A stretch of DNA of 32,000 nucleotides from Candidatus Saccharimonadota bacterium (GTDB lineage Archaea; Nanobdellota; Nanobdellia; Pacearchaeales; GW2011-AR1). Below are positions 3,868-25,806 of this stretch, piece after piece (position 1 is the stretch's first letter; each line of letters opens with the position of its first letter). Both the position numbers and the translations under genes were made by a program. The stretch covers positions 300,001-332,000 of the forward strand of contig JBAZYG010000001.1 in assembly GCA_041659445.1 (NCBI GenBank), written 5' to 3'. The notes below the pieces were generated by a model. That model saw only the letters and a program-made list of their open reading frames with translations, made no database searches and was not told the origin of the DNA.

Positions 3868-4215
3868 TTATAAACTTTCAAAATAAGAATTAATTTTCTT
3901 TATTTCTTGAGAAGTTATTTCTTTTTTCAAAAAATCCTCAAAATCAATTATTTTGTATTTTCTGTATTTGTAATAATTTTCAGAAGCATAACCAAATTTT
4001 TTTATTTTTCCATAAATATTTATTCCTGCTTCAAAACAATTTGAAAATATAGAATATTGCCAAACACTTTTTTCAGTTGGAAGTTTTTCGTTATCCCTTC
4101 GCCAATCTGCACATTCAAAAACCCTCATTAATTCAATAGCTTCTCTTTCACTGTTAGTTTTAATGACGAGGTTTTCTGAGATATCTAAATGAATTTTGGG
4201 TTTTATTTTTGTCAT
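3868..4215 (-). CDS. Hypothetical protein
   Basis: 115-aa ORF. TTTTAAAA at 4238-4245 lies about 30 nt upstream of the ATG. No recognisable motif. Confidence 0.6.
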   Translation of the reverse strand: MTKIKPKIHLDISENLVIKTNSEREAIELMRVFECADWRRDNEKLPTEKSVWQYSIFSNCFEAGINIYGKIKKFGYASENYYKYRKYKIIDFEDFLKKEITSQEIKKINSYFESL

Positions 4216-4264
4216 GAGACTTTTCTAAATTAAAACCTTTTAAAAACCTTTTGGTAAACAAATT

Positions 4265-4588
4265 TTATTTTAATTTAACTGCAGTTCCATAAGCAAGCAT
4301 TTCTGATGCTCCTTGCATTACAGTAGATGTTGAAAATCTCATTCCAACAATTCCGTTTGCTCCAAGCTTTATTGCTTCATTTACCATTCTGTTATAAGCT
4401 TCATCTCTTGATTGAACTGTTAATTCAGTGTAAGCTTTAACTTCTCCACCGATGATATTTTTGAATACTGCTCCAATGTCTCTACCGATGTTTCTTGCTC
4501 GAACAGTATTTCCTCTTACAATTCCTAAAACTTGGATTATTTTTTTATTTGGAATTTCATTAGCTGTTGTCACAATTATTTCTTTCAT
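4265..4588 (-). CDS. YbjQ/UPF0145 family protein (putative heavy-metal-binding domain fold)
   Basis: Full-length pattern typical of UPF0145: TTANEIPNKKI..LGIVRGNTVRARNIGRDI...GGE...Y..L....R.EA..RM...A..LGANGIVG.RF.TS. GGAGG Shine-Dalgarno 6 nt upstream. Confidence 0.85.
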   Translation of the reverse strand: MKEIIVTTANEIPNKKIIQVLGIVRGNTVRARNIGRDIGAVFKNIIGGEVKAYTELTVQSRDEAYNRMVNEAIKLGANGIVGMRFSTSTVMQGASEMLAYGTAVKLK

Positions 4589-7685: not shown

Positions 7686-8612
7686 ATGATGGATTGGAAA
7701 AAAGTTTTGAGCATTCTAGCATTTTTGTTCATTATAGGCTTGCTTTTATTATATTGGTATTTTCCCTCTGTGCCTTCAGATTATTCTATTAATAAAAATT
7801 CTAATTTTAGTAAAGAGCCAATTAATTCAAGCTTTAATTCAAGTTTAATGCAATTTTATGAAAATATGAGATTTCCTTTAGAAAATATTTCTTATTCAAT
7901 TGAAAATACTTGTAATTTGCAAAAAAAAGCAGATATGGAAAGAGCATTTGAAATTATTGAAGAAAAAACATCTCTTAATTTTTATAGTTCAAATCAAGGA
8001 CAAATACATATTTTTTGTGAGGATAGAAATAAAATAGATTCAGAAGGTTTGTTTGTTGCTGGAGAAGGAGGACCTGCAAATATTACTCTTGGAAAATATT
8101 TCAGTGTAATTGAAAATGGACAGATTTTACTTATAAAAAGTTCAGAGTGTCCAAACCCGAATATTGCAATACATGAATTACTTCATGTTTTAGGATTTCA
8201 ACATTCAGATAATTCAAATAATATTATGTATCCTGTTAGCGAATGTGATCAAATTATCAGCGATGATATTTTAATTAAAATACAGGAATTATATTCTTAT
8301 CCAAGTCTTCCGGATTTGGAATTTGAAGGGGTTTCTGTTAGCATAAAAAACAGAATGTTAGACTTTAACTATAGTATTAGAAATGAAGGATTGATTAAAT
8401 CTGAAAATTTTGTGGTTGGAGTTTATGTTAATGATAAAAAAATTAAAGAAATTGAAACTGAAGGGTTGGAAATGGGTTATGGACAAAAAGTCAGTGTAGA
8501 AAATTTCTTATTAAGTCAAATGAAAATAGATGAAATCAAGTTTGTGATTGAAGGGGATTTTGAAGAGTTAAATAAAAAAAATAATGAGATTACTTTGAAT
8601 GTAACAAAATAA
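7686..8612 (+). CDS. Membrane-anchored metzincin (matrixin/M10-like) zinc metalloprotease with a C-terminal CARDB-like domain
   Basis: HELLHVLGFQHS matches the HExxHxxGxxH zinc motif, followed by the Met-turn NIMYP. N-terminal TM ILAFLFIIGLLLLYWYF. C-terminal beta domain (VSVSIKNRMLDFNYSIRNEGLIKSENFVVGVYVND). The second ATG at 7689 fits the 29-nt TATA rule (TTTATAAA 7660-7667). Confidence 0.85.
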   Translation: MMDWKKVLSILAFLFIIGLLLLYWYFPSVPSDYSINKNSNFSKEPINSSFNSSLMQFYENMRFPLENISYSIENTCNLQKKADMERAFEIIEEKTSLNFYSSNQGQIHIFCEDRNKIDSEGLFVAGEGGPANITLGKYFSVIENGQILLIKSSECPNPNIAIHELLHVLGFQHSDNSNNIMYPVSECDQIISDDILIKIQELYSYPSLPDLEFEGVSVSIKNRMLDFNYSIRNEGLIKSENFVVGVYVNDKKIKEIETEGLEMGYGQKVSVENFLLSQMKIDEIKFVIEGDFEELNKKNNEITLNVTK

Positions 8613-8614
8613 TC

Positions 8615-8704
8615 TCAATCATCTAAAACATTCATAAAATCTTCGTCAAAATCTTCTTCTTCTGAAGCGATTTCTTGTTCTTCATAGTTATCTTCATCAA
8701 TCAT
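8615..8704 (-). CDS. Candidate 29-aa acidic micro-protein
   Basis: MIDEDNYEEQEIASEEEDFDEDFMNVLDD, read by hand on the minus strand. No canonical TATA at -29. Speculative. Confidence 0.2.
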   Translation of the reverse strand: MIDEDNYEEQEIASEEEDFDEDFMNVLDD

Positions 8705-8895
8705 CTTGTTGTAGGGAGATTCTCCCTGTACCTCATTTTTATATTTTTAGAATAACTCTTGTCCTTTTTAAAATCTTCTATTCAAAAAAATACATGTTTT
8801 TACGAGGACAAAGTTTAAAAACAGAAAGAAGTTTGTAAATGATATCTAAAATAAAGTATTCTAAGAATTTTCCTTTAAACAAATTATTTTTTTAA

Positions 8896-9222
8896 TTAAA
8901 AAGTAAATTTATCTGAATTTCCTCGAATAAATTTCATATTATCAATGAATTTTTTTACTTCTGGAGAAACACTTTGTTCAGTATAAATATCATAAGTTCC
9001 ATTTACTCCGTAAATTTTCATTAAATCATTTTCAATATCGAACATAAATGTATTTATATGTTTTCCGTCAGTATAAATTGGTTCATGTAAATGAGATTGC
9101 CATAAAATTGGATTTTTAAAAACCATTTGAAAAACTTGATCTGTTTGTGCAACTAATTCTAAAGCTTTTTTATTGATTTTTGATTTTCCTTCAATATCTG
9201 CATTTTTATATTCGTTTGTCAT
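8896..9222 (-). CDS. Hypothetical protein
   Basis: 108-aa ORF starting 4 nt after the stop of the upstream gene (same strand). No recognisable motif. Confidence 0.6.
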   Translation of the reverse strand: MTNEYKNADIEGKSKINKKALELVAQTDQVFQMVFKNPILWQSHLHEPIYTDGKHINTFMFDIENDLMKIYGVNGTYDIYTEQSVSPEVKKFIDNMKFIRGNSDKFTF

Positions 9223-13300: not shown

Positions 13301-14686
13301 TTATTCGTCTTTCATATCAGCAGCTTCTGCAACAAAGTAAGCTCTGTTTGATGCTACTTCTTTGATTTTTCCGTCTTTCTCGAATATGGCTGTTGTTGGA
13401 GGTAATGCAAATCTACCTAAAACTCCAATCTTTGATGAATAAATTATGTAATTAATTACTCTTGATTCTCCTTTTTCTAATTTGTCAAAGTTCCATTGTA
13501 ATAATCTCTTTGAAGCATCCATTTTTGTTGGAGCGTTTCCTAAGAATTTTTCATAAAGCTTTACTAAAGGAGGCAATCTTTCCATAACATTAACTTTTTC
13601 AATGTATTTTTTAGCATGAATATTTACAGTTACCTTTAATGCAAATTCTCCGCCTTTTGCTCTCACGAATGAAATGTGTTTCTTTAATACAAGATATCTA
13701 TTCACAGATTTTTTAGTGAAAACAACAATCACGATTATTAATATAATAACCAAGAATGGAATTATCCAATTTGTTCGAACAATTATTTGTTGTGTCTCAC
13801 CTGGTTTTATTTCTTGAAGCCAGCTATAATAAATTTTTCCACCTTGTCTTGTAACAGAAGTTGGTTCTGGACTAAAACTTGTGAAAAGTCTTGAAAAAAC
13901 ATTTTTCTTTATTGTTGTTTCTGTTGTAACAATTACATTTCCTTCATTTGTCTTTTCAATTATTTTTTTATCGATAATAAAACCATATTCTCTTTTTGAA
14001 GAAGTTAAAATATCTTTTTCAACAAATTCAATAGGAGCTTGAGCTTCAGCAGTTATACCATTGTAATTTATTGTTGCAGTTACAGTATAAAATCCAGCCA
14101 TTAATTCTTTGAAATCATCTTTATTTAATTCAACTGTAAATGTTTTTTTCTCTTTATAATTTAAAGAAACTTTTTCCTCGAAATCAAAAAATGAAGATTT
14201 GAAATTAACATTCACGTCTTCAAAATTGTAATCTATTTTATTATATAAATAAACTTGCATTGTTTTTGTCTCAGGATCAATATTCTGAGAACCAATTTCA
14301 AATGCATCTTCTAAATTTACTACATTCACTGTAATTTGTTTGCTTATTTCAGATTTGTCTAATGCTTGAATAACCAAATCAAATGTTGAATAACCTAAAT
14401 CTGTATTTGAACTAGGATAAATTTTTAATTGAACATCTTTTGTTTCACCATGATTTATTGTAATTCTTCCAGAAGGTTCCAAGCCTAAACCAAAAAAAGT
14501 GTAAAAAAGAAAACTGTTTGAAGGTCCGTTATTTGTAATTCTTAAATTAATTATTGCAGGTTGATTTAAATCCACAATCATTACTTCGTTTGAAGGTTGT
14601 TTTTCAATTGTTAAATCTATTGGTGTAACAAATGGAATTATTAATAACGCTAGAACAAAAACAAACATCAAATTTCTCTTTTTCAT
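13301..14686 (-). CDS. Exported membrane protein with CARDB/NEW3-like beta domains and one internal TM
   Basis: I prefer the start at 14686 (MKKRNLMFVFVLALLIIPF, signal-like), with TATTTAAA about 30 nt upstream; the ORF track starts at 14719. Segments such as PAIINLRITNNGPSNSF are CARDB-like. TM helix IIPFLVIILIIVIVVFT. Confidence 0.7.
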   Translation of the reverse strand: MKKRNLMFVFVLALLIIPFVTPIDLTIEKQPSNEVMIVDLNQPAIINLRITNNGPSNSFLFYTFFGLGLEPSGRITINHGETKDVQLKIYPSSNTDLGYSTFDLVIQALDKSEISKQITVNVVNLEDAFEIGSQNIDPETKTMQVYLYNKIDYNFEDVNVNFKSSFFDFEEKVSLNYKEKKTFTVELNKDDFKELMAGFYTVTATINYNGITAEAQAPIEFVEKDILTSSKREYGFIIDKKIIEKTNEGNVIVTTETTIKKNVFSRLFTSFSPEPTSVTRQGGKIYYSWLQEIKPGETQQIIVRTNWIIPFLVIILIIVIVVFTKKSVNRYLVLKKHISFVRAKGGEFALKVTVNIHAKKYIEKVNVMERLPPLVKLYEKFLGNAPTKMDASKRLLQWNFDKLEKGESRVINYIIYSSKIGVLGRFALPPTTAIFEKDGKIKEVASNRAYFVAEAADMKDE

Positions 14687-14765
14687 GTTAAAGAAAATGA
14701 ATTTTAGATATTTAAACATTTCTATGGAAAATTTTTAGAGATTTTTAGAAAATTATTTAATCTTT

Positions 14766-15200
14766 TCATTTAAAACTATTTGAACTTCTTATTTCATCCC
14801 AATCTGTAGTGCATCCTTTAAACCCGTTATTTTCAGAGGATTTAAGAAAATTTGGATTAACACTGCCTTTGACGAATTCTTTTAAATTTTTAAAAATTTC
14901 TTCAAATAGTTTTAAATCTTTATGGTATATGTCGTATATTGGACAAATTTTATTTTCTGAAAATCCAGAAGTTGAAAATCTATCGCAGAATTCTTTAAAA
15001 GTTTCATGAAATCTTAAATCATAAGAAGCATAATCTTTATACATTAAACAGTCTTCTCTTAGAGAACAACCTATTTCTTCTTTTGGAAAAACCCTATTTC
15101 CATGAATTTCTCCAATTTCAAGAGGCATACTTTTTGGTTGATAACCTTTTCCAGATATTTCTAGAAAATTAGAATCTTGTGAAGGTTTTTTCTTAACCAT
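14766..15200 (-). CDS. Hypothetical Cys/His-containing protein
   Basis: 144-aa ORF. TTTAAAAA at 15222-15229 is 29 nt upstream. No recognisable motif. Confidence 0.6.
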   Translation of the reverse strand: MVKKKPSQDSNFLEISGKGYQPKSMPLEIGEIHGNRVFPKEEIGCSLREDCLMYKDYASYDLRFHETFKEFCDRFSTSGFSENKICPIYDIYHKDLKLFEEIFKNLKEFVKGSVNPNFLKSSENNGFKGCTTDWDEIRSSNSFK

Positions 15201-15231
15201 ATTTTATTAATTTAAATTTAGTTTAAAAAGA

Positions 15232-15456
15232 TTATTGCACTTCAGAATCAGACATATAATAATCAAAAACAATGTTTTCCAAATCTTCTGAAAAAGGTTT
15301 GTCGTTGTTCTCGTCATAAATTAATCTTTCAAATCTCTTAGGTTCCTTTTTCTTTAAATTGTAAAAATAACTTTGATAATCAAAATTTCTTATTTTTAAT
15401 TGAAATTCATCAATTTGTTTAAGAACTTCTTTTGTTACTTCTTGATATGATTGCAT
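15232..15456 (-). CDS. Hypothetical small protein (74 aa, trimmed)
   Basis: TTTATAAA at 15478-15485 lies exactly 29 nt upstream of the internal Met (MQSYQEV...). The longer ORF-track N-terminus is Phe-rich read-through of AT-rich promoter DNA. Confidence 0.5.
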   Translation of the reverse strand: MQSYQEVTKEVLKQIDEFQLKIRNFDYQSYFYNLKKKEPKRFERLIYDENNDKPFSEDLENIVFDYYMSDSEVQ

Positions 15457-15574
15457 ACAAAGAATTACTAAACTTTCTTTATAAAAATTGTTGTGATTGA
15501 TTTTATTTTTAAAATAAAAAAATATATAAACTAAACAAAAATCAGTATATAACTTAAATGAAAATAAGAAAATC

Positions 15575-15802
15575 ATGGAAGAAAAAACAAAAAAAGAGTG
15601 TTCAAAATTAAAAAAAATTTTAAGAGGCATATACCATCCTGAAGGAATTCAGCTTCTTATTAAAGATTCACTTAAAAGAAAAAAATATGCCTCTGAAAAA
15701 ATTGAGGATATCTCAGAAATTGGGGAACATCTGGACAATGTAAAATATATTTTTTATGGAGCAACAACCTTCTTATTGGTATATTACGAATTTTTTAAAT
15801 AA
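15575..15802 (+). CDS. Hypothetical small protein
   Basis: 75-aa ORF. TATATAAC at 15546-15553 is 29 nt upstream. Divergent from the 15456 gene. Confidence 0.45.
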   Translation: MEEKTKKECSKLKKILRGIYHPEGIQLLIKDSLKRKKYASEKIEDISEIGEHLDNVKYIFYGATTFLLVYYEFFK

Positions 15803-15806
15803 TAAT

Positions 15807-16310
15807 TTAATGTCTTCCTTCTAAATCAAGGTATGCTTTTGCTTGTCCTAAGAATTCATCACATGCAGTTGCAACTTTTCCTTCAAATGTACTAATTCTG
15901 TCTGTAATTACCCATTTTTCATAAATTGCTCTTAAGAATTTTCTATATGCTGTTGTTTCAAATTTCCCATCATAGTCTCGAACAAGAATTCCTTTGATTG
16001 AAACTTCAACGCTTCCTTTGTTTGATTTTAACTTTACTCCGTCTTGATTCATCTCAACATCAACTAAACCAAGAATTCTGAATTTTACTTTTACATCTAT
16101 TTTAAAATAATCAGTATATTTTTTAGAACCTTCCCATTCAACGTCAATATCTTTGGAGTTTCCTTTTATTTTTTCCGAATATTTTGATTCAACTAAATCC
16201 AAACCTGTTTCTTGACTTAGCCATTCATAACAAAATTTATAAAAATCTTTGAATGAAAAAACGCCATCATACTTTACCTTACTCGAATAAATGTCTTGTT
16301 TTTCCGCCAT
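15807..16310 (-). CDS. Hypothetical protein (167 aa)
   Basis: Clean ORF, divergent from the thermosome gene. No motif recognised. Confidence 0.65.
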   Translation of the reverse strand: MAEKQDIYSSKVKYDGVFSFKDFYKFCYEWLSQETGLDLVESKYSEKIKGNSKDIDVEWEGSKKYTDYFKIDVKVKFRILGLVDVEMNQDGVKLKSNKGSVEVSIKGILVRDYDGKFETTAYRKFLRAIYEKWVITDRISTFEGKVATACDEFLGQAKAYLDLEGRH

Positions 16311-16469: not shown

Positions 16470-18089
16470 ATGGTGAAAAGTCCTGATTTATTTTCTGAAG
16501 ATATTTCTAGAATGATTGGTAGAGATGCACAACGAAATAATATTCTAGCTGCAAAAATGGTTGCAGACATAGTCAAAACAACTTTAGGTCCAAAGGGAAT
16601 GGACAAAATGCTGGTTTCTCCTACTAATGATATTATTATCACAAATGATGGCGTGACAATTTTAGATGAAATGCAAATTGAACATCCTGCTGCAAAAATG
16701 ATGGTTGAAATTGCTAAAACTCAAGAAAATGAAGTTGGAGATGGAACAACAACTGCAGTTATGCTCGCTGGAAAACTTTTGGAAAATGCAGAAAAACTTT
16801 TGGATTCAAAAATTCATCCAACAACAATTACTAAAGGTTATAATATTGCGCACGAAAAAGCTCAAGAAATTTTGAGAGATATTTCTTTAGAAATAAGTCC
16901 TGAAAACGACGCTGTTTTAAAACAAATTGCAATGACTGCTATGACTGGAAAAGGTGCAGAAAATTCCAAGGAAAAATTTGCAGAAATTATTGTCGAGGCT
17001 GTTAAAATGATTTCAGAAAATGGAAAGGTTGATTTGAATAATATTAAAATTGAAAAAATTATGGGAAATGGAATTAAAGATAGTGAATTAGTGAAAGGAA
17101 TTGTTTTAGATAAAGAAAGAATTTCTCAAGAAATGCCGAAGATGATTAATAATGCAAAAATTGCTTTGATTGATTTTCCTTTAGAAATAAAAAATCCAGA
17201 AATAGATACAAAAATTTCAATTTCAACTCCTCAGCAATTGCAAGATTTTATCGAAGAAGAAGAAAATTCAATCAGAACTATGGTTGAAAAAATTTTAGTT
17301 ACAAATGCAAATGTTTTGTTTTGTCAAAAAGGCATTGATGATTTTGCAAGTTATTTACTTTCTAAAGAAGGCGTTTATGCTTGTCGAAGAGTTTCAAAAA
17401 GTGACATGGAAAAATTAGCAAAAGCTACGAGTGGAAAAATTGTTAGTAATTTAAATGAATTATCGTCTAGGGATTTGGGTGAAGCAGATGTTGTTGAACA
17501 AATTAAAACGAAAAATGAAACTTTTAGTTATATTAAAGGATGCAAAAATCCAAAAGCTGTGACAATTCTTGTTCACGGCGGAACAGAACATGTTATTGAT
17601 GAAATTGAAAGAGCAATTATCGACGGGTTGGGTGATGTTGCTTCTGCAGTTGAAACTCGTTTAGTTGTTCCAGGAGGAGGAGCAATTGAAATTGAATTAT
17701 CAAGAAGATTAAAAGAATTTTCTCAAATGTTTCATGGAAGAGAACAATTAGCAATTTTTGAATTTGCAAATGCACTTGAATTTATTCCAATTACTCTAGC
17801 TGAAAATGCAGGACTTGATCCAATAGATATTTTAACTCAATTAAAAGCAAAACACGACGCAGGAGAAATGAATTTTGGATTAAATTTATTTACAAATTCT
17901 ATCGAGAACGCTTTGGGAGCAAAAATCATTGAACCATACAAAGTAAAAAGCCAAGCCTTGACTTCTGCTAGTGAAGTTGCAATTATGATTTTAAGAATCG
18001 ACGATGTTATTGCTTCAAAACCCAGTAAAAAAGGAAATATGAATCGTTCTGATTTTGGAAAAGGATTTGATATTGGAGGATTGGAATAA
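16470..18089 (+). CDS. ths: Thermosome subunit (group II chaperonin, Cpn60/TCP-1 family)
   Basis: [27 protein letters not shown] (ATP-binding) and VPGGGAIE motifs. 539 aa, typical length. Confidence 0.97.
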
Positions 18090-18532
18090 TGAAATTAGAA
18101 GAAATCAAATTTGGATATATTGATAGAAATGCAAATCCAAAAATTACAAAATTTGATAAAAAAAATTTAAAAAAAGAAGATAAATTTATACAAATAAAAA
18201 TTGAAGAAAATGAATATATCTTTGTTGGAGATCTTTATCATAGAAGAATTTTAAAAGAAGCTTTAGAATTTTTTGGAATAGAATATAAAACAAAATTTAA
18301 TAGAATGCATCAAGAAATGCCTTTAGGAATTGGAAATTCTTATCAAATAATTGGTGCTGGAAAAATAAAACTTTCAAATGAAAAATTAAAGTTTTATGAT
18401 GCTAGTTCAGATTATTTTGATTTAGTTAAGGGTGCAAATAAGCGAAATTTAGAAGATTTTTTTGGAAAAGTAAATGTGATTGACGAAAATGTTCTAGAAT
18501 ATCCTTCTTTTTTAGTAAATTTTAATATTTAA
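18089..18532 (+). CDS. Hypothetical protein, paralog 1; Janus/PHPT1-like motif pattern (putative phosphohistidine-phosphatase fold)
   Basis: The start overlaps the thermosome stop (TAATG), with GGAGGA 8 nt upstream. Motifs FIQIKI, LYHRRIL, YQIIGAGKIKL and FYDASSDYF are collinear with human PHPT1 FKYVLIRV, EYHADIY, ECLGGGRISH and VYGYSMAYG as I recall them. Confidence 0.6.
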   Translation: MKLEEIKFGYIDRNANPKITKFDKKNLKKEDKFIQIKIEENEYIFVGDLYHRRILKEALEFFGIEYKTKFNRMHQEMPLGIGNSYQIIGAGKIKLSNEKLKFYDASSDYFDLVKGANKRNLEDFFGKVNVIDENVLEYPSFLVNFNI

Positions 18533-18573
18533 ATCACAATAATACTTATAAATAGCTCTTTACAAAAAAAATT

Positions 18574-18972
18574 ATGGAATTAGAAGATAAATCCCAATTT
18601 GAACATAATTTTTTAGGTTTTGACATTAATGAACTGAGTCAGGATTTTATACAAATTTATATAAATAATTGTCCTTATTTTCAGTTTATACGAAGAGAAT
18701 CTATGGGTAGCGCAAAACATTCAGAAGCACTTGAAAAAATACTTGAAAAATTCAAAGTAAATTACAATAAAATAAGAATACATGGAAAAATGGTTCCTGA
18801 AAAAAATAAAGATGGCGAATATCAACTTGTAGGTGCTGGAAAGTGTTTTAAGATGGTTGATTATTTTGAATTTATTGGAAATAGCTCAGTTTATAATTGC
18901 GAACCAAACAAAAAACATTTTGATGAAACTAAAAAACCAGAAGGAATAAAATTTATTTGCCCAAAAGGTTGA
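18574..18972 (+). CDS. Hypothetical protein, paralog 2 of the Janus/PHPT1-like pair
   Basis: Shares FIQIYI, AKHSEAL, YQLVGAGKCFK and FIGNSSVYN with paralog 1. Own promoter: CAATAATACTTATAAA, with the TATA 29 nt upstream. Confidence 0.6.
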   Translation: MELEDKSQFEHNFLGFDINELSQDFIQIYINNCPYFQFIRRESMGSAKHSEALEKILEKFKVNYNKIRIHGKMVPEKNKDGEYQLVGAGKCFKMVDYFEFIGNSSVYNCEPNKKHFDETKKPEGIKFICPKG

Positions 18973-19011: not shown

Positions 19012-20139
19012 ATGAATTATCACATCATCCTAACAGAAAGATGCAATCTTAAATGTAAATATTGTTATGAAAAATCTATGAATGAATTTGATAATGGATT
19101 ACAAAAAAAATGGGATTATGATAATACTGTTCCTTTTGATTCTGAAGTTAAACCTGAAAATCTTAAAAATTTTTTAAAACCAGGAGATAGATTGATTTTT
19201 TATGGAGGAGAACCTTTGATTATGCTTGAAAAAATAAAAGAAATTATGGATTTTCTCAAGAATTCTAAAATTAAATTTTGTATTCAAACAAATGGCATGC
19301 TCTTGAATTTAATTCCAAAAGAATATTTAATAAAATTCGAAAAAATATTAATTTCTATTGATGGAGATGAAAAAACAGATAATGAGAATAAAGGAAAAAT
19401 ACATTATAATCAAGTTCTAAAAAATTTGCAAATAATTAGAGAAAATGGGTTTAAAGGAGAAATTGTTGCAAGAATGGTAATTTCTCCACCAAAATCTTTT
19501 GATGTTTACAATCAAGTTTTACATCTCGTGAATTTAATAAAAAAAAGATATTTAGATTCGATTCATTGGCAGATAGACGCAGGATTTTATAAAAATGATT
19601 TTAACGAAAAAGAATTTTCAAATTTTGTTAATAAATATAATCATGAAATTACTAGATTAATTAATTGGTGGATTAAAGAAATAAAAAACGGAAAAATTTG
19701 GAAATTATATCCTTTTTTAGGCATTCTAAATAGATTAATGAAATGGGATAAAGAAACTAAAATTCATTGTGGAGCAGGTTATGCGAATTATACTATAACT
19801 ACTTCTGGAAAAATTTCTGCTTGTCCAATTTTAAATTCAGTTAAAAACTTTTATTGTGGAGATTTGAACACACCTAAAGAAAAACTTAGGAAAATTTATT
19901 GTGAAGGAAATTGTTTGAATTGTAACTTCTCAAAAATTTGTGGAGGAAGATGTTTATATTGGAATTATTCTCGACTTTGGCCAAAAAAAGGGGATGAACT
20001 AATTTGTAAAACAATAAAGCATTTAATAAAAATTCTCGAGGACAAAATTCCAGAAATAGAAAAAATAATTCAAAAAAATATTTTTTCAGAAAAAGACTTT
20101 AAATATGAAAAATATTTTGGCCCAGAAATTATACCCTAG
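19012..20139 (+). CDS. Radical SAM enzyme with a C-terminal SPASM domain (putative peptide/protein-modifying maturase)
   Basis: CNLKCKYC matches the CxxxCxxC radical SAM cluster motif, and FYGGEPL is a SAM-binding motif. The C-terminus has C-x12-G-x4-C (CGAGYANYTITTSGKISAC), then CLNC-x5-C-x3-C (CLNCNFSKICGGRC) and a trailing Cys, giving the 7-Cys SPASM signature. Confidence 0.92.
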   Translation: MNYHIILTERCNLKCKYCYEKSMNEFDNGLQKKWDYDNTVPFDSEVKPENLKNFLKPGDRLIFYGGEPLIMLEKIKEIMDFLKNSKIKFCIQTNGMLLNLIPKEYLIKFEKILISIDGDEKTDNENKGKIHYNQVLKNLQIIRENGFKGEIVARMVISPPKSFDVYNQVLHLVNLIKKRYLDSIHWQIDAGFYKNDFNEKEFSNFVNKYNHEITRLINWWIKEIKNGKIWKLYPFLGILNRLMKWDKETKIHCGAGYANYTITTSGKISACPILNSVKNFYCGDLNTPKEKLRKIYCEGNCLNCNFSKICGGRCLYWNYSRLWPKKGDELICKTIKHLIKILEDKIPEIEKIIQKNIFSEKDFKYEKYFGPEIIP

Positions 20140-20178: not shown

Positions 20179-20421
20179 ATGGATTTAGAAAAAATAAAGG
20201 AAATTCCAGAAGAAAAATTAACAAAAATCTTGAGAGAAATAGACGAGAAAGTAACTGAAGCTATAGCAGAACAAGCACTTTATGCCGAAGGTTGGAGAGA
20301 TAGTTTATCAGAAGAAAGTTTAGATTTTTCTAAAGAATTTGATTTTTATAAACTAACAAATGCCGAAGCCCACCAAAAAATAATAGAAATAAAACAATAT
20401 ATTCGAAATGGATCAAAGTAA
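20179..20421 (+). CDS. Hypothetical small acidic protein
   Basis: 80-aa ORF. TTTATAAG at 20150-20157 is 29 nt upstream. Confidence 0.55.
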   Translation: MDLEKIKEIPEEKLTKILREIDEKVTEAIAEQALYAEGWRDSLSEESLDFSKEFDFYKLTNAEAHQKIIEIKQYIRNGSK

Positions 20422-20632
20422 AGAAAATAACTTAGATAACCTAATAATTTTGAAAAAAAGATTAGATGAAATTTTTATAGAAGGAGACGAACTTTCAAAT
20501 TGGAAACCTGGTTTGTCGCCAGAACAAAGAAAGATTGTTGAAATTTATGGTTGGGAAGACTTAAATAAATATAATTTATATTCTGAAATTTCAAAAGAAA
20601 TCTTAAAAGGACTCAAGCAAAAACATCCTTAA
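20408..20632 (+). CDS. Hypothetical small protein
   Basis: 74-aa ORF overlapping the upstream gene by 14 nt. Its 3' end overlaps the convergent TatD gene by 20 nt. Confidence 0.5.
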   Translation: MDQSKENNLDNLIILKKRLDEIFIEGDELSNWKPGLSPEQRKIVEIYGWEDLNKYNLYSEISKEILKGLKQKHP

Positions 20633-21350
20633 AATTTTTTTCTATTTGTTTTTCTACAAGCTCTTCAGAAGTTTTCCATATTTCTGAAATTTTTTTTATT
20701 GATTCTTTAATAAATGCAGACTGATTTTTCGTTTCCTTGTAAGGAGACAAAAACGGCGAATCAGTTTCTGTCAAAACTTTTTCTTTTGGAATTTCTAAAA
20801 TCATCTTTTGAAAATGTTCACTTCTTACAATATTTGTTGGAATTGAAAAATAGCATCCTAATTCCACTGCTTTTTTGACTAAATTAAAATTTCCTGAAAA
20901 ACAATGCAAAATTATTTTTAATGAAGAATATTCTTTTAAGATTTCCAAAACCTCTTTTTCTGCTTTTCTTGAATGTACTATCACTGGTAATCCATTCTCT
21001 CTTGCAATATTCAATTGAAATTTTAAAACTGATTCTTGAACTTTTTTATCTTTTCCTTCTTGAAAGTCCATACCAATTTCACCAATTGCAGTGATTGAAT
21101 TTTTGTGTTTTTCAAAAAAATCTTTGAAATTAAATAAATCATGTCTTGTAATCTTATCAGAAGGATATATTCCAATTGCCAATCGAACAATATCATAATT
21201 CTTCGCAATTTCAAGATTTTTTATACAAGAAATTAAATCAACTGAATTTGTAATTACGCTTGAAACATTTTCTTTCTCTGCATTTTTTATTAAATCAACT
21301 AATTCCTCTTTCTTAAAAAAATCTAAATGTGCATGAACATCGTATTTCAT
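20613..21350 (-). CDS. tatD: TatD-family metal-dependent hydrolase/DNase
   Basis: N-terminal DVHAHLDF (HxH). Later GEIGMD, VIVHSR and ILHCFSG motifs are typical of TatD amidohydrolase-fold nucleases. Confidence 0.9.
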   Translation of the reverse strand: MKYDVHAHLDFFKKEELVDLIKNAEKENVSSVITNSVDLISCIKNLEIAKNYDIVRLAIGIYPSDKITRHDLFNFKDFFEKHKNSITAIGEIGMDFQEGKDKKVQESVLKFQLNIARENGLPVIVHSRKAEKEVLEILKEYSSLKIILHCFSGNFNLVKKAVELGCYFSIPTNIVRSEHFQKMILEIPKEKVLTETDSPFLSPYKETKNQSAFIKESIKKISEIWKTSEELVEKQIEKNFKDVFA

Positions 21351-21351
21351 T

Positions 21352-22203
21352 TTAAATTAATGAAGCATAAAGCACACACCCTAAAATAATTAATGATAAA
21401 ATTATGCTTTTCCAATTTAATTTTTCTTTTAAGAAAATTACAGATGAAAAATAAATTAAAATTGGTCCTAACATCAACATTAAAGTTGTTGAAACAACTC
21501 CAATTTCAAGATATCCATAATAAAGAATTATTCTATATACTATCCAGATTATAGCGATTAAAAATATTTTAAGATTTAAACCACTATTTCCTTTTTGGAA
21601 TAATTTTGGTCTAAAAACTATAAACGTTAATATTCCAATTAAAATGCATCTTACAAAATAAAAAGTAATTGCAGAATAATAATCTAAAACTAGCCTTGAT
21701 AAAACTAATTCTAACGCAAATAATAAACTACCAAAAAGTGCAGCTAAAGATGCGGAACTAAATTGTAAATGATGTTTTTTAATATGAGCGAATACTAGGG
21801 CAACACCTGCAATTAACGCCGGAATTAATATTGAAGTCTTTGTTTCAAATATTGTTAATCCAATCAAACTAAATATAATTGAAAATAAAATAACAAAAAG
21901 AGGTTCAGTAATTCTTATTGGTTCTAATTTTGTTAAGGTTTCCTTTTTCAAAGAATAAAAAGTTAAGATATTTGCAAAAAAAGAAATTACAACAATAGCA
22001 AGCATTAAAAGAATGTTTTTTAATTGAAACGCTTCTGGTTTTGCATTCCAGAAAAAAAACACTAATGGAAGTAAAATTATAGAAATTGATAAAAAACTAA
22101 AAGTTTGAAAATGTTTTATGTTTACTTTTTTCTTTTTTAATAGGAATCTTTCAGCAACTGTTCCAGCAGCTAACGCAATTGCAGAAATTATAGGAATCCA
22201 CAT
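21352..22203 (-). CDS. EamA/DMT-superfamily transporter (about 10 TM)
   Basis: Roughly ten hydrophobic helices in two similar halves, each ending in an EamA-like FLKE/LKKE segment. Stop is 1 nt from the TatD start. Confidence 0.75.
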   Translation of the reverse strand: MWIPIISAIALAAGTVAERFLLKKKKVNIKHFQTFSFLSISIILLPLVFFFWNAKPEAFQLKNILLMLAIVVISFFANILTFYSLKKETLTKLEPIRITEPLFVILFSIIFSLIGLTIFETKTSILIPALIAGVALVFAHIKKHHLQFSSASLAALFGSLLFALELVLSRLVLDYYSAITFYFVRCILIGILTFIVFRPKLFQKGNSGLNLKIFLIAIIWIVYRIILYYGYLEIGVVSTTLMLMLGPILIYFSSVIFLKEKLNWKSIILSLIILGCVLYASLI

Positions 22204-22304
22204 ATTATCACCTTTTAAATATAAGAAAACTATCTTTAAAAACTCTTTTTATTCTTAAAACCTGAATTAGATAAACTTATAAATATTTTTTGACAAATAT
22301 ATCT

Positions 22305-22844
22305 ATGGTAAAAAAAGAGGAGTCTTCTTTAAACTTAAAAGAGAGAAATATTAGTTTGGTTTTAGATTCCTATGAAGATATATTTTCTAGTTTTGATCCG
22401 AGACTACCTGATTCTAGAGCTATTTCAGATGATTTTCTTTCTGAATGTAAAAGAGCGACGTTGGACAAAGGAGAAGATTTAGAATTAAGGTTATTTATAC
22501 CTAAAATTAAAAGAAGTTATCTTGAAGAAGTTAAAATAAAAAAGAGATTAAAAGAACATTTTTTAAAACATCATAAAGAAAAAGAAAAAGAGAGAAAAAA
22601 AGTAAGATATAGTGGTTTAATTTGGTTTTTTTTAGGAGTTTTAATTATGTCGTTAGAAACATTTTTTATAAAATATCGTGAAGGATGGATTATTGAATTT
22701 TTAATAATTATTTCTACTCCTGCAAGTTGGTTCTTTTTTTGGGAAGGACTTGATAAAATATTTATTACTTCAAAAGAAAATAAAATTGATTATGATTTTT
22801 ATAAAAAAATGCATAAATCAGAAATTTCTTTTTTTGAATATTAA
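22305..22844 (+). CDS. Hypothetical protein with two C-terminal TM helices
   Basis: ATG 22305 (MVKKEESS...) is preferred over the TTG at 22290 because CTTATAAA at 22276-22283 lies 29 nt upstream of 22305. Confidence 0.6.
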   Translation: MVKKEESSLNLKERNISLVLDSYEDIFSSFDPRLPDSRAISDDFLSECKRATLDKGEDLELRLFIPKIKRSYLEEVKIKKRLKEHFLKHHKEKEKERKKVRYSGLIWFFLGVLIMSLETFFIKYREGWIIEFLIIISTPASWFFFWEGLDKIFITSKENKIDYDFYKKMHKSEISFFEY

Positions 22845-22931
22845 TTTTAATAAAAATAAATTTCTTCTTAAAAGCAAATTACTTATTCAAAATAAAAAGA
22901 TTATTAAAATAAGATATATACTCTTTTTTGT

Positions 22932-23003
22932 GCGTGAGTAGTTCAGTGGTTAGAATATTTCGTTGCCAACGAAGTGACCCGGGTCCGAATCCCGGCTCGC
23001 GCA
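22932..23003 (+). tRNA. tRNA-Gly (GCC)
   Basis: Hand-folded. Acceptor GCGTGAG/CTCGCGC, D arm GTTC-AGTGGTTA-GAAT, anticodon arm TTTCG-TTGCCAA-CGAAG, T arm CCGGG-TCCGAAT-CCCGG, A73. 72 nt, no intron, no encoded CCA. Confidence 0.93.
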
Positions 23004-23009
23004 TTCTGT

Positions 23010-23150
23010 AAGGAAACGAGGTTTCCTTTTCTCTCGATTTCGTACGGGAAATTAAACTTTTAAATTACTCCTATCACGACATCGTTCGTGTTCAACCTTC
23101 CTCAAACACTGAACATCAACTTCAGAATTGCCTCCTACGAAGTTGCAATT
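23010..23150 (+). ncRNA. Candidate structured RNA between tRNA-Gly and tRNA-Val (unclassified)
   Basis: A locally GC-enriched island in AT-rich DNA with three hairpins: AGGAAAC-gag-GTTTCCT (23011-23027), CACGA-catcgt-TCGTG (23075-23090), CAACTTC-15nt-GAAGTTG (23117-23145). No ORF. The strand is not established. Confidence 0.25.
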
Positions 23151-23226
23151 AAAAATTAAAAAAACAAAAATAATAAAACAAAAACCTTTTTAACTGCAAT
23201 TTATCTTTAGATTTTATATTTACACA

Positions 23227-23297
23227 GGCCCGTTAGTCTAATGGCAGAACACTTCGTTTACACCGAAGAAGCGGAGGTCCGATTCCTCTACGGGCCA
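23227..23297 (+). tRNA. tRNA-Val (TAC)
   Basis: Hand-folded. Acceptor GGCCCGT/ACGGGCC, anticodon arm CTTCG-TTTACAC-CGAAG, T arm GGAGG-TCCGATT-CCTCT, A73. The D stem has one mismatch. 71 nt. Confidence 0.88.
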
Positions 23298-23366
23298 TTT
23301 TAACATTTTTAATCTTATTTTTGAGTATAACAATCTTTAAAAAAAGCTTCTTTTATTTATTTTAAA

Positions 23367-23969
23367 ATGAAACTCTTTGAAGATGAACTTACCAAATTAT
23401 ATCATTATGGTCTTAACTTTGCATTTCAACAAAACAACAACTACCTTAAAAGAGAAGATATTGAAGATATTGTGAGCGATTCCATGCTTGCATTATTAGA
23501 AAATTATGAAAATAAAAAATTTAAACATTTTAACATAAGATCCACAGAAACATATTTTATAAGTATTGTCAAGATTAAAATTTTTCAAAGAAACTTAAAA
23601 CTTTCAAAAGAAGCCAAAAAGTTAAAAGAATGGTTATTAACTCAAGAAAAATATGAACCTCATGATTTTTTTTATTCAGAAGAAACAAAAAAACAAAAAG
23701 ATTTAGGAGAATTTTTAATAGGTCTTTCAGGGGGACCGAAGTCAAGAAAAATCCTTTATGAATATTTTTTCGAAAAAAAACCTCAAATAAAAATAGCTCA
23801 GGAAATGGGGCTTGGAAAAATAGATGTTAAAAATCGTGTTTGCATTGCAAAAAAATTAATCAAAAAGAAAATAAAAAAAAGCAATTCGTTAAAAAGAGAA
23901 TTAATCGAAATATTAAAAAAACAAAAAAATTATAATGAAAATTTTGAAAGGATTTTTAATGAATTATAA
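23367..23969 (+). CDS. Sigma-70/ECF-like protein (region 2-like N-terminus, region 4-like HTH C-terminus)
   Basis: The N-terminus (LYHYGLNFAF....REDIEDIVSDSMLALLENYENKKF....TYFISIVKIKIFQ) is collinear with ECF sigma region 2. The C-terminus (SRKILYEYFFEKKPQIKIAQEMGLGKIDVKNRVCIAKKLIKKKI) is collinear with the region 4.2 HTH. Pattern match only. Confidence 0.5.
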   Translation: MKLFEDELTKLYHYGLNFAFQQNNNYLKREDIEDIVSDSMLALLENYENKKFKHFNIRSTETYFISIVKIKIFQRNLKLSKEAKKLKEWLLTQEKYEPHDFFYSEETKKQKDLGEFLIGLSGGPKSRKILYEYFFEKKPQIKIAQEMGLGKIDVKNRVCIAKKLIKKKIKKSNSLKRELIEILKKQKNYNENFERIFNEL

Positions 23970-24030: not shown

Positions 24031-25806
24031 ATGACAGACCAAGATTCTGAAAATATTCCTGGAATGGAAATTGATAATAAATATAAAAAACCAGAAATTG
24101 ACAATAACGCTGAACAAGCAAAAAAACAATTTGAAAAAACCAAAAAAGAACTAGATAAAATAAAAAATTTCATTATTAAAAAATATAAATTTGTTCAATC
24201 TATAAGTATTTTACCTCCTCAATCAATTAAATTCTTTATCGAAGAAGAAGAAGCTCCAAAAGAATCTGAAAAATATGTTCATATTAATATAATCATTCCT
24301 GATGAAAAGGAAAAAGAAGCCCAAAAAATACAAAAAGAAATAGTTAAGGAAATTGAAAAAACAAAAGAAAAAGTTTGGTTGCACATAAGAACTCCGAAGG
24401 AAATCTGGGAAATTTGCATGGACCAAAAATTTGAAATTAGTTCTGCAATTTTTATGTCTTTTCCATTATATGATAAAGGATTTTTAGAAGCAATGAGAGT
24501 TGCAGAAATTCACAAATCACTTGTTTTACAAAAATTTGACAGATATGTTGTTAGTTATGTTTTAGGAGGAAGTTTAGTAAGAGGAGATGCAATGAAAACT
24601 TCTGATTTAGATGTGTTTATTATTATCAATGATACAGATGTTAAAAGAATGTCAAGACTAGAACTTTTGGAAAGATTAAGAGGAATGATTTATAGATATG
24701 TTGCAGAAGCGGGTTCATTGGCTGGCTCAAAAACAAAATTAGAACCCCAAATTTATTTATTGACTGATTTTTGGGATGCAGTTAAAGACGCACACCCTGT
24801 TATGTTTACTTTTATTCGTGACGGTGTTCCTATTTATGATAGAGGAACTTTCATGCCTTGGAAAGCTTTGCTGAGAAAAGGAAAATTAAAACCAAGTCCA
24901 GAAGCAATAGATATGTTTATGTCGATGGGTGACGAAGTAATTCCTAGAAGCAAAAGAGTTATGTTATCAGAAGTTTTCACAAATATTTTTTGGGGAGTAA
25001 CGACACCTGCTCAAGCAGTAGTGATGCTTAACGGATGCCCGCCACCAAATGCAAAGAAAGAACTAGTTCGTGAATTCAAAAAGGAATTTCTTGAAACAAA
25101 AATGATTGAAAAAAAATATGTAGATTTCTTAGAAAAAGTAATTGAAACATGGAGAGATTATGAACATGAAAAAATAAAAGAAATTAAAGGTGAGGAAATT
25201 GACAAGCTTTTGAAAGAGACTGAAGATTTTTTGAAAAGATTAAAAGAATTGAGAATACAAATTGAGAAAAAATTCCAAGAAAAAACAATTGAACAAATTT
25301 ACGCAGATACTTTTGAATTAATCAAAATCATAGTCGGTAAAAAATCACAAGAGCAAACAATTAATGATTTTGAAAAGAACTTTGTCAAGAAAGGAAAATT
25401 TTCTCCTCAGGATTTAAGAATTTTAAGAGAAATTGTTTCAGCTAGAAATGAATTCAAGAAGGGAAAATCAGATAGTCATAAAATTGATAGAGCAAGAAAA
25501 GATGGGGAAATTTTGATTAACAATTTGGTTGAATATTCTCAAAGATGTGATTTAGTTTCTATTGAAAAGGGCAGAATGAAATTAAAATTAAAAGATAAAG
25601 TTATAGAAATTATTAGTTCTGGTGGAAAAACTTTTGTTTTTGATGCTGGAACTGTGAAAAAAATCACAAACAAAATTGAAGAATCATCAATGGAAGAAGT
25701 TGAACAATCTATTAAAGATCAAAAAGAAAAGAAAAACATTGAAATTAACCTTAAAGTTTTTGAAATTCTAAAAAAAGAGTTTGGTGACTTTGAAATTCTG
25801 ATTTAA
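24031..25806 (+). CDS. Large nucleotidyltransferase (Pol-beta/MNT superfamily) protein with helical HEPN-like C-terminal modules
   Basis: NTase motif LGGSLVRGDAMKTSDLDVFII, matching hG[GS]-x10-DxD. Paralogous over about 250 aa to 30721-31626. Extra N-terminal (~170 aa) and C-terminal (~170 aa) extensions. TTTATAAA at 24002 is 29 nt upstream. Confidence 0.8.
   Translation: MTDQDSENIPGMEIDNKYKKPEIDNNAEQAKKQFEKTKKELDKIKNFIIKKYKFVQSISILPPQSIKFFIEEEEAPKESEKYVHINIIIPDEKEKEAQKIQKEIVKEIEKTKEKVWLHIRTPKEIWEICMDQKFEISSAIFMSFPLYDKGFLEAMRVAEIHKSLVLQKFDRYVVSYVLGGSLVRGDAMKTSDLDVFIIINDTDVKRMSRLELLERLRGMIYRYVAEAGSLAGSKTKLEPQIYLLTDFWDAVKDAHPVMFTFIRDGVPIYDRGTFMPWKALLRKGKLKPSPEAIDMFMSMGDEVIPRSKRVMLSEVFTNIFWGVTTPAQAVVMLNGCPPPNAKKELVREFKKEFLETKMIEKKYVDFLEKVIETWRDYEHEKIKEIKGEEIDKLLKETEDFLKRLKELRIQIEKKFQEKTIEQIYADTFELIKIIVGKKSQEQTINDFEKNFVKKGKFSPQDLRILREIVSARNEFKKGKSDSHKIDRARKDGEILINNLVEYSQRCDLVSIEKGRMKLKLKDKVIEIISSGGKTFVFDAGTVKKITNKIEESSMEEVEQSIKDQKEKKNIEINLKVFEILKKEFGDFEILI

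Follow-up and report, generated by a model that had tools for sequence, protein, structure and literature searches.

Two tandem genes lying directly downstream of a thermosome gene in a 32,000-nucleotide (nt) stretch of archaeal DNA (hereafter, the window; contig JBAZYG010000001.1 of assembly GCA_041659445.1, positions 300,001 to 332,000) encode small proteins that very probably share ancestry with the human 14-kDa phosphohistidine phosphatase PHPT1 and its relatives in the Janus family (Pfam PF05005, Ocnus). The results support the existence in archaea of a new variant of the Janus/PHPT1 fold, situated in a thermosome operon that often also contains a radical S-adenosylmethionine (rSAM) gene. 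Taken as a whole, we modestly favor the reading that the two open reading frames (ORFs), A and B, are diverged tandem homologs of PHPT1 that have kept the catalytic core and a PHPT1-like chemistry and are linked to the thermosome. The features on which this reading rests are as follows, in window coordinates.

16470..18089, forward strand: thermosome gene (group II chaperonin, Cpn60/TCP-1), recognized from its ORF, its translation and its 75% identity to the Cpn60_TCP1 gene of locus L004.
18089..18532, forward strand: ORF A, 147 amino acids (aa), PHPT1/Janus-like, a long form with extra N- and C-terminal strands.
18239..18241, forward strand: codon of A His51, which opens helix alpha-1 and is proposed to correspond to the catalytic His53 of PHPT1, assigned from conservation, the predicted model and Ocnus profile coordinates.
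18353..18364, forward strand: codons of A G89-A90-G91-K92, proposed to correspond to PHPT1 G75-G76-G77-R78, assigned from conservation, HMMER and hhalign.
18404..18415, forward strand: codons of A S106-S107-D108-Y109, proposed to correspond to the phosphate-binding PHPT1 segment S94-M95-A96-Y97, assigned from conservation, HMMER and hhalign.
18574..18972, forward strand: ORF B, 132 aa, paralogous to A and diverged from it, a short form.

An initial annotation of this DNA had described the two ORFs as divergent tandem paralogs. Both are present exactly as described, and all of the motif blocks that it quoted were found: FIQIKI, LYHRRILKEALEFF, YQIIGAGK and FYDASSDY in A, and FIQIYI, AKHSEALEKILEKF, YQLVGAGK and FIGNSSVY in B. 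Their paralogy was borne out by a BLASTP comparison (31% identity over 85 residues, E = 3e-4) and by a hidden Markov model (HMM) of eight A-type sequences, which scored B at 30.9 bits, compared with 14.9 bits for the best of 20,000 shuffled versions of B. This test was not circular, because B and B-like sequences were excluded from the model. The core residues are K32, Q35, H51, Y85, G89-A-G91-K92, S106 and Y109 in A, and Q27, H49, Y83, G87-A-G89-K90, S104, Y107 and H115 in B. A carries F45 and N120 at positions that are mostly Arg and His in the family, and B carries D24 and Q37 at positions that are usually Lys and Arg.

Neither A nor B had a match in Pfam, even at E ≤ 10. The NCBIfam search yielded only two chance-level matches, both for A (E of about 0.1) and unrelated to phosphatases, with nothing relevant for B, and phmmer searches of A and B against the PDB sequences returned noise only (photosystem II CP43, E = 1.8). 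Word-indexed homolog searches were shallow (6, 1 and 9 proteins); those with A and B yielded five relatives for A and, for B, none. When 1.84 billion representatives were searched exhaustively with a HMMER profile, 257 proteins were identified at E ≤ 1e-3, with 48 of them at E ≤ 1e-10; the family comprises at least 257 clusters at 50% identity, and most members are 113–135 aa in length. There was no confident Pfam match among the 148 members scanned, and scans of the GTDB species genomes for the family gave no match. In all cases in which a source could be assigned, it was archaeal; the contig of member P0125, for example, was judged to be archaeal because it carries PCNA.

We counted conserved residues in an alignment of 148 family members, using the numbering of A. 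Columns conserved in at least 90% of the members are Q35, H51, L59, Y85, G89, G91, S106 and Y109, and the positions that correspond to PHPT1 residues are as follows.

A position 32: Lys in 118 of 148; PHPT1 K21.
A position 45: Arg in 98 of 148; PHPT1 R45.
A position 51: His in 142 of 148; PHPT1 H53.
A positions 89 and 91: Gly in 144 and 147 of 148; PHPT1 G75 and G77.
A position 92: Lys or Arg in 65 of 148; PHPT1 R78.
A position 104: Gly in 76 of 148; PHPT1 G92.
A position 106: Ser in 143 of 148; PHPT1 S94.
A position 109: Tyr in 146 of 148; PHPT1 Y97.
A position 120: His in 115 of 148; PHPT1 H102.

The full set of His, GxG, Ser and Tyr was found in 134 of the 148 members, and both A and B keep it. 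The initial annotation had proposed that the catalytic His, a GxG loop followed by a basic residue and the Ser occur in the same order and register as in PHPT1. For the His, the two Gly residues and the Ser this holds across the family at the frequencies listed above, whereas the basic residue after GxG, found in fewer than half of the members, does not belong to the conserved pattern.

The PHPT1 blocks quoted in that proposal were correct, as the human PHPT1 sequence used here matches residues 1–125 of PDB entry 2ai6 with no visible mismatch in the alignment (human PHPT1 is represented in the PDB by entries 2ai6, 2hw4, 2nmm and 2ozw). When the family profile was compared with 177,635 distinct PDB sequences using hmmsearch, the top three sequences were human PHPT1 constructs (E of about 0.5), and the alignment paired elvGaGkikl..kikfygkSsdYeigpn with ECLGGGRISHqsQDKKIHVYGYSMAYGPAQ. 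Because PHPT1 had been named in advance, the relevant figure is the per-sequence probability, which is about 3e-6. The score of PHPT1 against the family HMM was 13.1 bits, and the best of 20,000 shuffled sequences reached 10.0 bits. In a Pfam scan of all 148 members, PF05005 (Ocnus) was matched at E < 1 by 10 members (best E = 0.0086), and no other family among the 24,736 in Pfam was matched by more than two. An hhalign comparison of the 148-member family with human PHPT1 gave E = 4.5e-4 over 103 columns, with a probability of only 33%; the same comparison using a 7-sequence alignment gave E = 0.13, and the PHPT1 signal emerged only with the 148-member profile.

The structures predicted with AlphaFold2 from the family alignment were confident for both A (predicted local distance difference test score, pLDDT, 95.1; predicted template modeling score, pTM, 0.89; a helix at residues 51–61) and B (pLDDT 86.0, pTM 0.79). 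In Foldseek comparisons with 350,542 PDB chains, the best match of the A model was PHPT1 2nmm_C (E = 0.41, probability 0.75, template modeling (TM) score by target 0.51). For the B model, PHPT1 chains 2nmm_C and 2nmm_B ranked first and second (probabilities 0.98 and 0.77), and the best match to 2nmm had E = 0.064, a TM-score by query of 0.47 and a TM-score by target of 0.57. The predicted order of elements is beta1-beta2-alpha1-(small extra hairpin)-beta3-beta4-alpha2-beta, forming a mixed beta-sheet with two helices. PHPT1 has been described as six strands flanked by two helices (PMC4817053), and the predicted order fits this description.

The initial annotation had suggested comparing the two proteins with the Janus/Ocnus profile and with the PHPT1 structure, and had posed a deep homolog and a novel convergent family as the alternatives. 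PHPT1 came first in the PDB profile search, Ocnus was the sole recurrent Pfam family, and 2nmm was the top PDB match for both AlphaFold models; each profile match was marginal and the TM-scores were borderline. Although each of these statistics is marginal by itself, the agreement of four tests (PDB profile search, Pfam scan, hhalign and Foldseek) favors deep homology in which the His/GxG/Ser-x-x-Tyr core has been kept.

The residues that the family and PHPT1 have in common are those of the PHPT1 active site. In PHPT1, His53 acts as the general base, the phosphate is held by the hydroxyl of Ser94 together with the amides at residues 53, 54 and 96, and Lys21 and Arg78 anchor the substrate (PMC11277029; PMC4817053). 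Helix 1 opens with His51 in the A model and with His49 in the B model. On the Ocnus profile, PHPT1 residues 8–117 map to positions 3–108 and residues 32–109 of member P0027 map to positions 39–102, so that P0027 His37 falls at about profile position 44, which corresponds to PHPT1 His53; this mapping also allows for an insertion, specific to the family, of about 14 residues. Similarly, residues 67–103 of member P0113 map to Ocnus positions 63–101, and its G70 and G72 fall on PHPT1 Gly75 and Gly77. Both HMMER and hhalign aligned the GxG block with PHPT1 GGGR and the Ser-x-x-Tyr block with the PHPT1 YGYSMAY loop. The equivalence of the family His to PHPT1 His53, as judged from predicted models and profile coordinates, is well supported but not proven.

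The strongest contextual clue, which the initial annotation had missed, is the conserved adjacency to the thermosome. Family genes directly adjoin the thermosome gene and share its strand in nine independent loci (the window, the P0006 contig, L001, L002, L003, L004/L005, L008, L012 and L013), with gaps of –1 to 57 nt. The Janus-like gene lies upstream of the thermosome gene in two of these loci and downstream in seven, and is present in one to three copies. A metagenome scan identified only two further loci, L012 and L013. The gene orders outside the window are as follows.

P0006 contig: thermosome, A-type gene, 130-aa ORF, rSAM.
L001: thermosome, A-type gene, B-like gene.
L002: thermosome, A-type gene.
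L003: thermosome, A-type gene.
L004/L005: Janus-like gene, thermosome, rSAM (0-nt gap).
L008 (1824-3408): thermosome, then three tandem Janus-like paralogs.
L012: Janus-like gene, thermosome.
L013: thermosome, Janus-like gene (3926-4423).

The thermosome proteins of the window and L004 are 75% identical, whereas identity between A and the Janus-like protein of L004 is only 26%, and the gene for the latter is found at the opposite flank of the thermosome gene. Because the Janus-like gene diverges rapidly, varies in copy number and changes its position, and nevertheless stays attached to the thermosome gene, we consider it likely that selection on co-expression, rather than inherited synteny alone, has maintained the association.

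These observations suggest the following mechanism. The near-invariant His at the start of helix 1 would serve as a general base that activates a water molecule, and the activated water would hydrolyze a protein-borne phosphoramidate (phosphohistidine or perhaps phospholysine). The Ser hydroxyl and the loop amides of the Ser-x-x-Tyr loop that precedes helix 2 would meanwhile hold the phosphate. The A and B genes would be co-transcribed with the thermosome gene, with A translationally coupled to it, and the two proteins would work with the thermosome as a functional unit. Because the adjacency is kept in relatives whose Janus-like proteins are about 26% identical, the partner or substrate is most likely the thermosome or something that is handled together with it. 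The ORFs, their paralogy, the family and its conserved residues, the top rank of PHPT1 and the gene adjacency were observed; from them we infer homology rather than convergence, catalytic activity, a substrate and a thermosome tie, to which we attach different degrees of confidence. Homology to PHPT1/Janus appears highly probable and a real functional tie to the thermosome reasonably probable, whereas the case for and against hydrolysis of phosphoramidates or phosphohistidine by A and/or B, as judged from their sequences, seems to us evenly balanced.

Several observations weigh against this reading. With respect to homology, the PF05005 gathering score (23 bits) was not reached, with A and B themselves unmatched; the two members with reported Ocnus bit scores had 13.3 bits, about 10 below that score. 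No single similarity statistic was significant database-wide (E-values of 0.06–0.5), and the TM-scores (0.38–0.57) were borderline and were obtained from predicted models only. With respect to the active site, hhalign, which was run without secondary structure, placed the family His on PHPT1 residue 40 instead of His53; given this N-terminal mis-register, the His equivalence rests on the position in the secondary structure and on the HMM coordinates. An equivalent of Arg78 is present in only 65 of the 148 members, though A and B both have Lys, while A lacks equivalents of Arg45 and His102, and B lacks those of Lys21 and Arg45. The family invariants Q35 and Y85 are not present in PHPT1, and they may mean that the ligand is different. 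The His has been lost in some thermosome-adjacent paralogs, being replaced by Ser in P0105 (L013) and by Pro in P0132 (the third copy in L008), which suggests that some copies are non-catalytic, putative pseudo-enzymes. With respect to the thermosome, the adjacency is in part inherited synteny, as the lineages that carry the thermosome-linked loci appear to be related, of which a syntenic 167-aa neighbor is one sign. The distant members P0062, P0125 and P0151 are not located beside a thermosome gene, and the literature that we searched contained no report of phosphohistidine on a thermosome.

Some of these points would be explained if A and B were Janus-fold proteins acting as non-catalytic cofactors or adaptors of the thermosome, that is, pseudo-enzymes whose pocket binds a ligand or a segment of the chaperonin, comparable to the Janus proteins of Drosophila, for which a phosphatase role is unclear (PMC4817053). 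The tight operon linkage, rearranged yet kept, the tandem arrays of one to three fast-evolving paralogs (26% identity for the L004 protein, compared with 75% for the thermosome), the loss of His in several thermosome-adjacent copies and the absence from A and B of two accessory basic or His residues each are all consistent with such a role. However, the complete His/GxG/Ser/Tyr set in 134 of 148 members, including A and B, is the pattern expected of a catalytic or phosphate-binding site, and A and B have no Pfam similarity to chaperonin cofactors such as prefoldin or phosducin-like proteins; we therefore regard a purely non-catalytic role as unlikely. Another explanation is that A and B resemble PHPT1 through convergence or by chance and belong to an unrelated small alpha/beta family whose motifs happen to be in register. 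The E-values from the PDB profile and Foldseek searches, all above 0.05, the lack of a Pfam match for A and B, the low hhalign probability together with an N-terminal register that disagrees with the motif register, and the family's own invariants Q35 and Y85 could all be taken in this sense. This explanation seems decidedly improbable, because all four tests ranked PHPT1 or Ocnus first among 10^4–10^5 alternatives, none of the 20,000 shuffled sequences reached the real score, and the common residues are exactly those of the PHPT1 active site.

The rSAM gene raises a further alternative, namely that this TIGR04084 enzyme has A and B as its partners or substrates, with the invariant Ser or Tyr as possible sites of modification, or that the two proteins serve as accessory subunits in a thermosome-modifying system. 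SPASM-domain rSAM enzymes typically modify peptides or proteins, and the nearest named NCBIfam matches of the window rSAM are peptide maturases. The rSAM gene begins 39 nt downstream of B, and the trio of thermosome, Janus-like and rSAM genes recurs in L004/L005 and on the P0006 contig. Nevertheless, rSAM is present in only three of the nine loci and in L004 adjoins the thermosome gene rather than the Janus-like gene, and A and B are folded domains of 130–150 aa that show no leader/core organization and no Cys-rich or repeated motif. The absence of rSAM from most of the loci led us to down-weight the idea of a dedicated rSAM substrate or of a precursor of a peptide made by the ribosome and modified post-translationally (RiPP), and we consider this alternative very improbable. 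Compared with these alternatives, diverged PHPT1 homologs with a retained core remain the reading that we prefer.

Three candidate memberships for A and B were not borne out. A RiPP-like precursor of an rSAM/SPASM maturase does not agree with an rSAM gene in three of nine loci or with confidently folded globular domains. SixA-type membership was rejected because A and B had no Pfam match, and thus none to His_Phos, and neither contains an RHG motif. Membership in the prefoldin or phosducin groups was likewise not supported, for lack of a Pfam match, and the structural matches were not coiled-coil or thioredoxin-like.

The remaining elements of the gene layout are as follows.

18075..18079, forward strand: GGAGG, a Shine-Dalgarno-like element 9 nt before the ATG of A, inside the end of the thermosome coding sequence; its function is putative, as read from the sequence.
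18533..18573, forward strand: A-B spacer of 41 nt, in which a TATA-like CTTATAAATA precedes the ATG of B by about 24 nt and a Shine-Dalgarno element is lacking.
19012..20139, forward strand: radical SAM/SPASM enzyme, NCBIfam TIGR04084 (AF0577 family), 39 nt after B.

The stop codon of the thermosome gene shares bases with the start codon of A (TAATG). The A-B spacer may be an internal promoter giving a leaderless transcript of B. A scan for sigma-70 promoters and intrinsic terminators found nothing above shuffled sequences, such a scan being uninformative for an archaeon. NCBI lists proteins identical to A and B, WC812_02185 and WC812_02190, as hypothetical and assigns them to a metagenome-assembled genome of Candidatus Pacearchaeota. 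This source, together with the thermosome gene directly upstream, agrees with the archaeal (DPANN) setting assumed in the initial annotation. With regard to a viral or mobile-element origin, IMG/VR scans were empty and a Foldseek comparison with BFVD gave no meaningful match. A paper on a marine-virus thermosome (PMC5332604) proved to be unrelated.

The window rSAM matched TIGR04084 at 272 bits (cut-off, 225). As a recurrent but not obligatory component, rSAM was found in the window, in L004/L005 and on the P0006 contig; it is absent from L001, L002 and L008, and none was seen in L003, L012 or L013. The L004 rSAM gene (8054-9178), which adjoins the thermosome gene and not the Janus-like gene, encodes a protein 53% identical to that of the window. 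A literature search on TIGR04084/AF0577 returned nothing relevant.

Other genes in the neighborhood are recorded here as separate observations. Directly after rSAM are two small ORFs of 80 and 74 aa (20179-20421 and 20408-20632, forward strand; 14-nt overlap), which have no Pfam match and may form a small two-gene cassette. The 167-aa protein, also without a Pfam match, is encoded divergently upstream of the thermosome region (window 15807-16310, reverse strand; L012 779-1282; L013 44-547), and the window and L012 copies are 61% identical. A gene of 184–189 aa lies divergently upstream of the Janus-like/thermosome unit in L004 (5337-5900), L012 (1359-1928) and L013 (1203-1757), in each case on the reverse strand; the L004/L005 copy matches Pfam CBS (PF00571), the L012 and L013 copies end in CxxC...CxxC, and no counterpart was found among the immediate neighbors in the window. 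Six of the ten neighboring ORFs scanned have no Pfam family (window 13301-16310 and 22290-23969). The four with a Pfam family are TatD (20613-21350), EamA (21352-22203), NTP_transf_2 (24031-25806) and the thermosome gene, the last of these outside that scan; synteny of the EamA gene extends to the L001, L002 and P0006 contigs.

If this archaeal branch keeps the active-site core, the Janus/PHPT1 fold would have a much deeper evolutionary history, and the family would provide the first candidate PHPT1-type phosphoramidate phosphatases in prokaryotes. Our literature searches found no paper describing prokaryotic Janus/PHPT1 homologs, PF05005 in prokaryotes or a link between the thermosome and PHPT1. 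Through this analysis a family that lacks Pfam or NCBIfam annotation (at least 257 clusters; 148 members scanned against Pfam; A and B against NCBIfam) gains a fold assignment and a hypothesis, and the rearranged but kept thermosome operon suggests a concrete partner for a poorly understood modification. A wider and speculative proposal, which we consider doubtful at present, is that DPANN and possibly other archaea have a PHPT1-type module dedicated to the thermosome. Its Janus-fold paralogs, one to three in number and evolving fast, would be in part catalytic and in part pseudo-enzymes, with rSAM as a frequent companion, and would regulate the chaperonin or the clients of the chaperonin by way of N-phosphorylation (phosphohistidine, phospholysine) or a different labile modification. 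If true, this would mean that eukaryotic PHPT1/Janus is of archaeal origin and that group II chaperonins have a previously unknown regulatory layer. The finding is interesting rather than revolutionary at this stage, since the activity, the substrate and the tie to the chaperonin are what we infer.

Among known systems, the TIGR04084 neighborhoods resemble the present locus in that the window rSAM scores above the family cut-off and recurs with the thermosome and a Janus-like gene; they differ in that this family has no curated function or partner, and the Janus-like proteins are not obvious substrates. In the literature that our searches returned, SixA is the prokaryotic phosphohistidine phosphatase, with ArcB, NPr and Ndk as its substrates. 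This bacterial protein is the prokaryotic enzyme known for the same presumed chemistry, the dephosphorylation of phosphohistidine on proteins. SixA belongs to the histidine phosphatase/PGM superfamily, with an RHG motif and a phospho-enzyme intermediate. Its fold and mechanism are unrelated to those of the A/B family.

The differences from PHPT1 are considerable. Identity in structural alignments is 7–13%, and the family does not reach the gathering score of Pfam. Between helix 1 and the GxG strand the family carries an additional beta-hairpin of about 14 residues, with the motif IPxxxG, while the long 29–39 loop of PHPT1 is missing from it; A-type members have further strands at the N- and C-termini. 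Gln35 and Tyr85 are invariants of its own, and the basic residue after GxG is not conserved. The family is archaeal where the source was determined and is operonic with a chaperonin, and its phosphatase activity is putative. In contrast, the size of the core (about 115–125 aa), the order of the secondary structure elements and the sheet with two helices are similar to those of PHPT1, and the family also has the His at the start of helix 1, the GxG turn and the (F/V)YGxSxxY loop. Equivalents of Lys21, Arg45 and His102 are frequent in the family, and the Lys after GxG in A and B stands in the place of PHPT1 Arg78. The A/B family is thus not a member of Janus/Ocnus in the curated sense, and it is PHPT1 that it resembles most.

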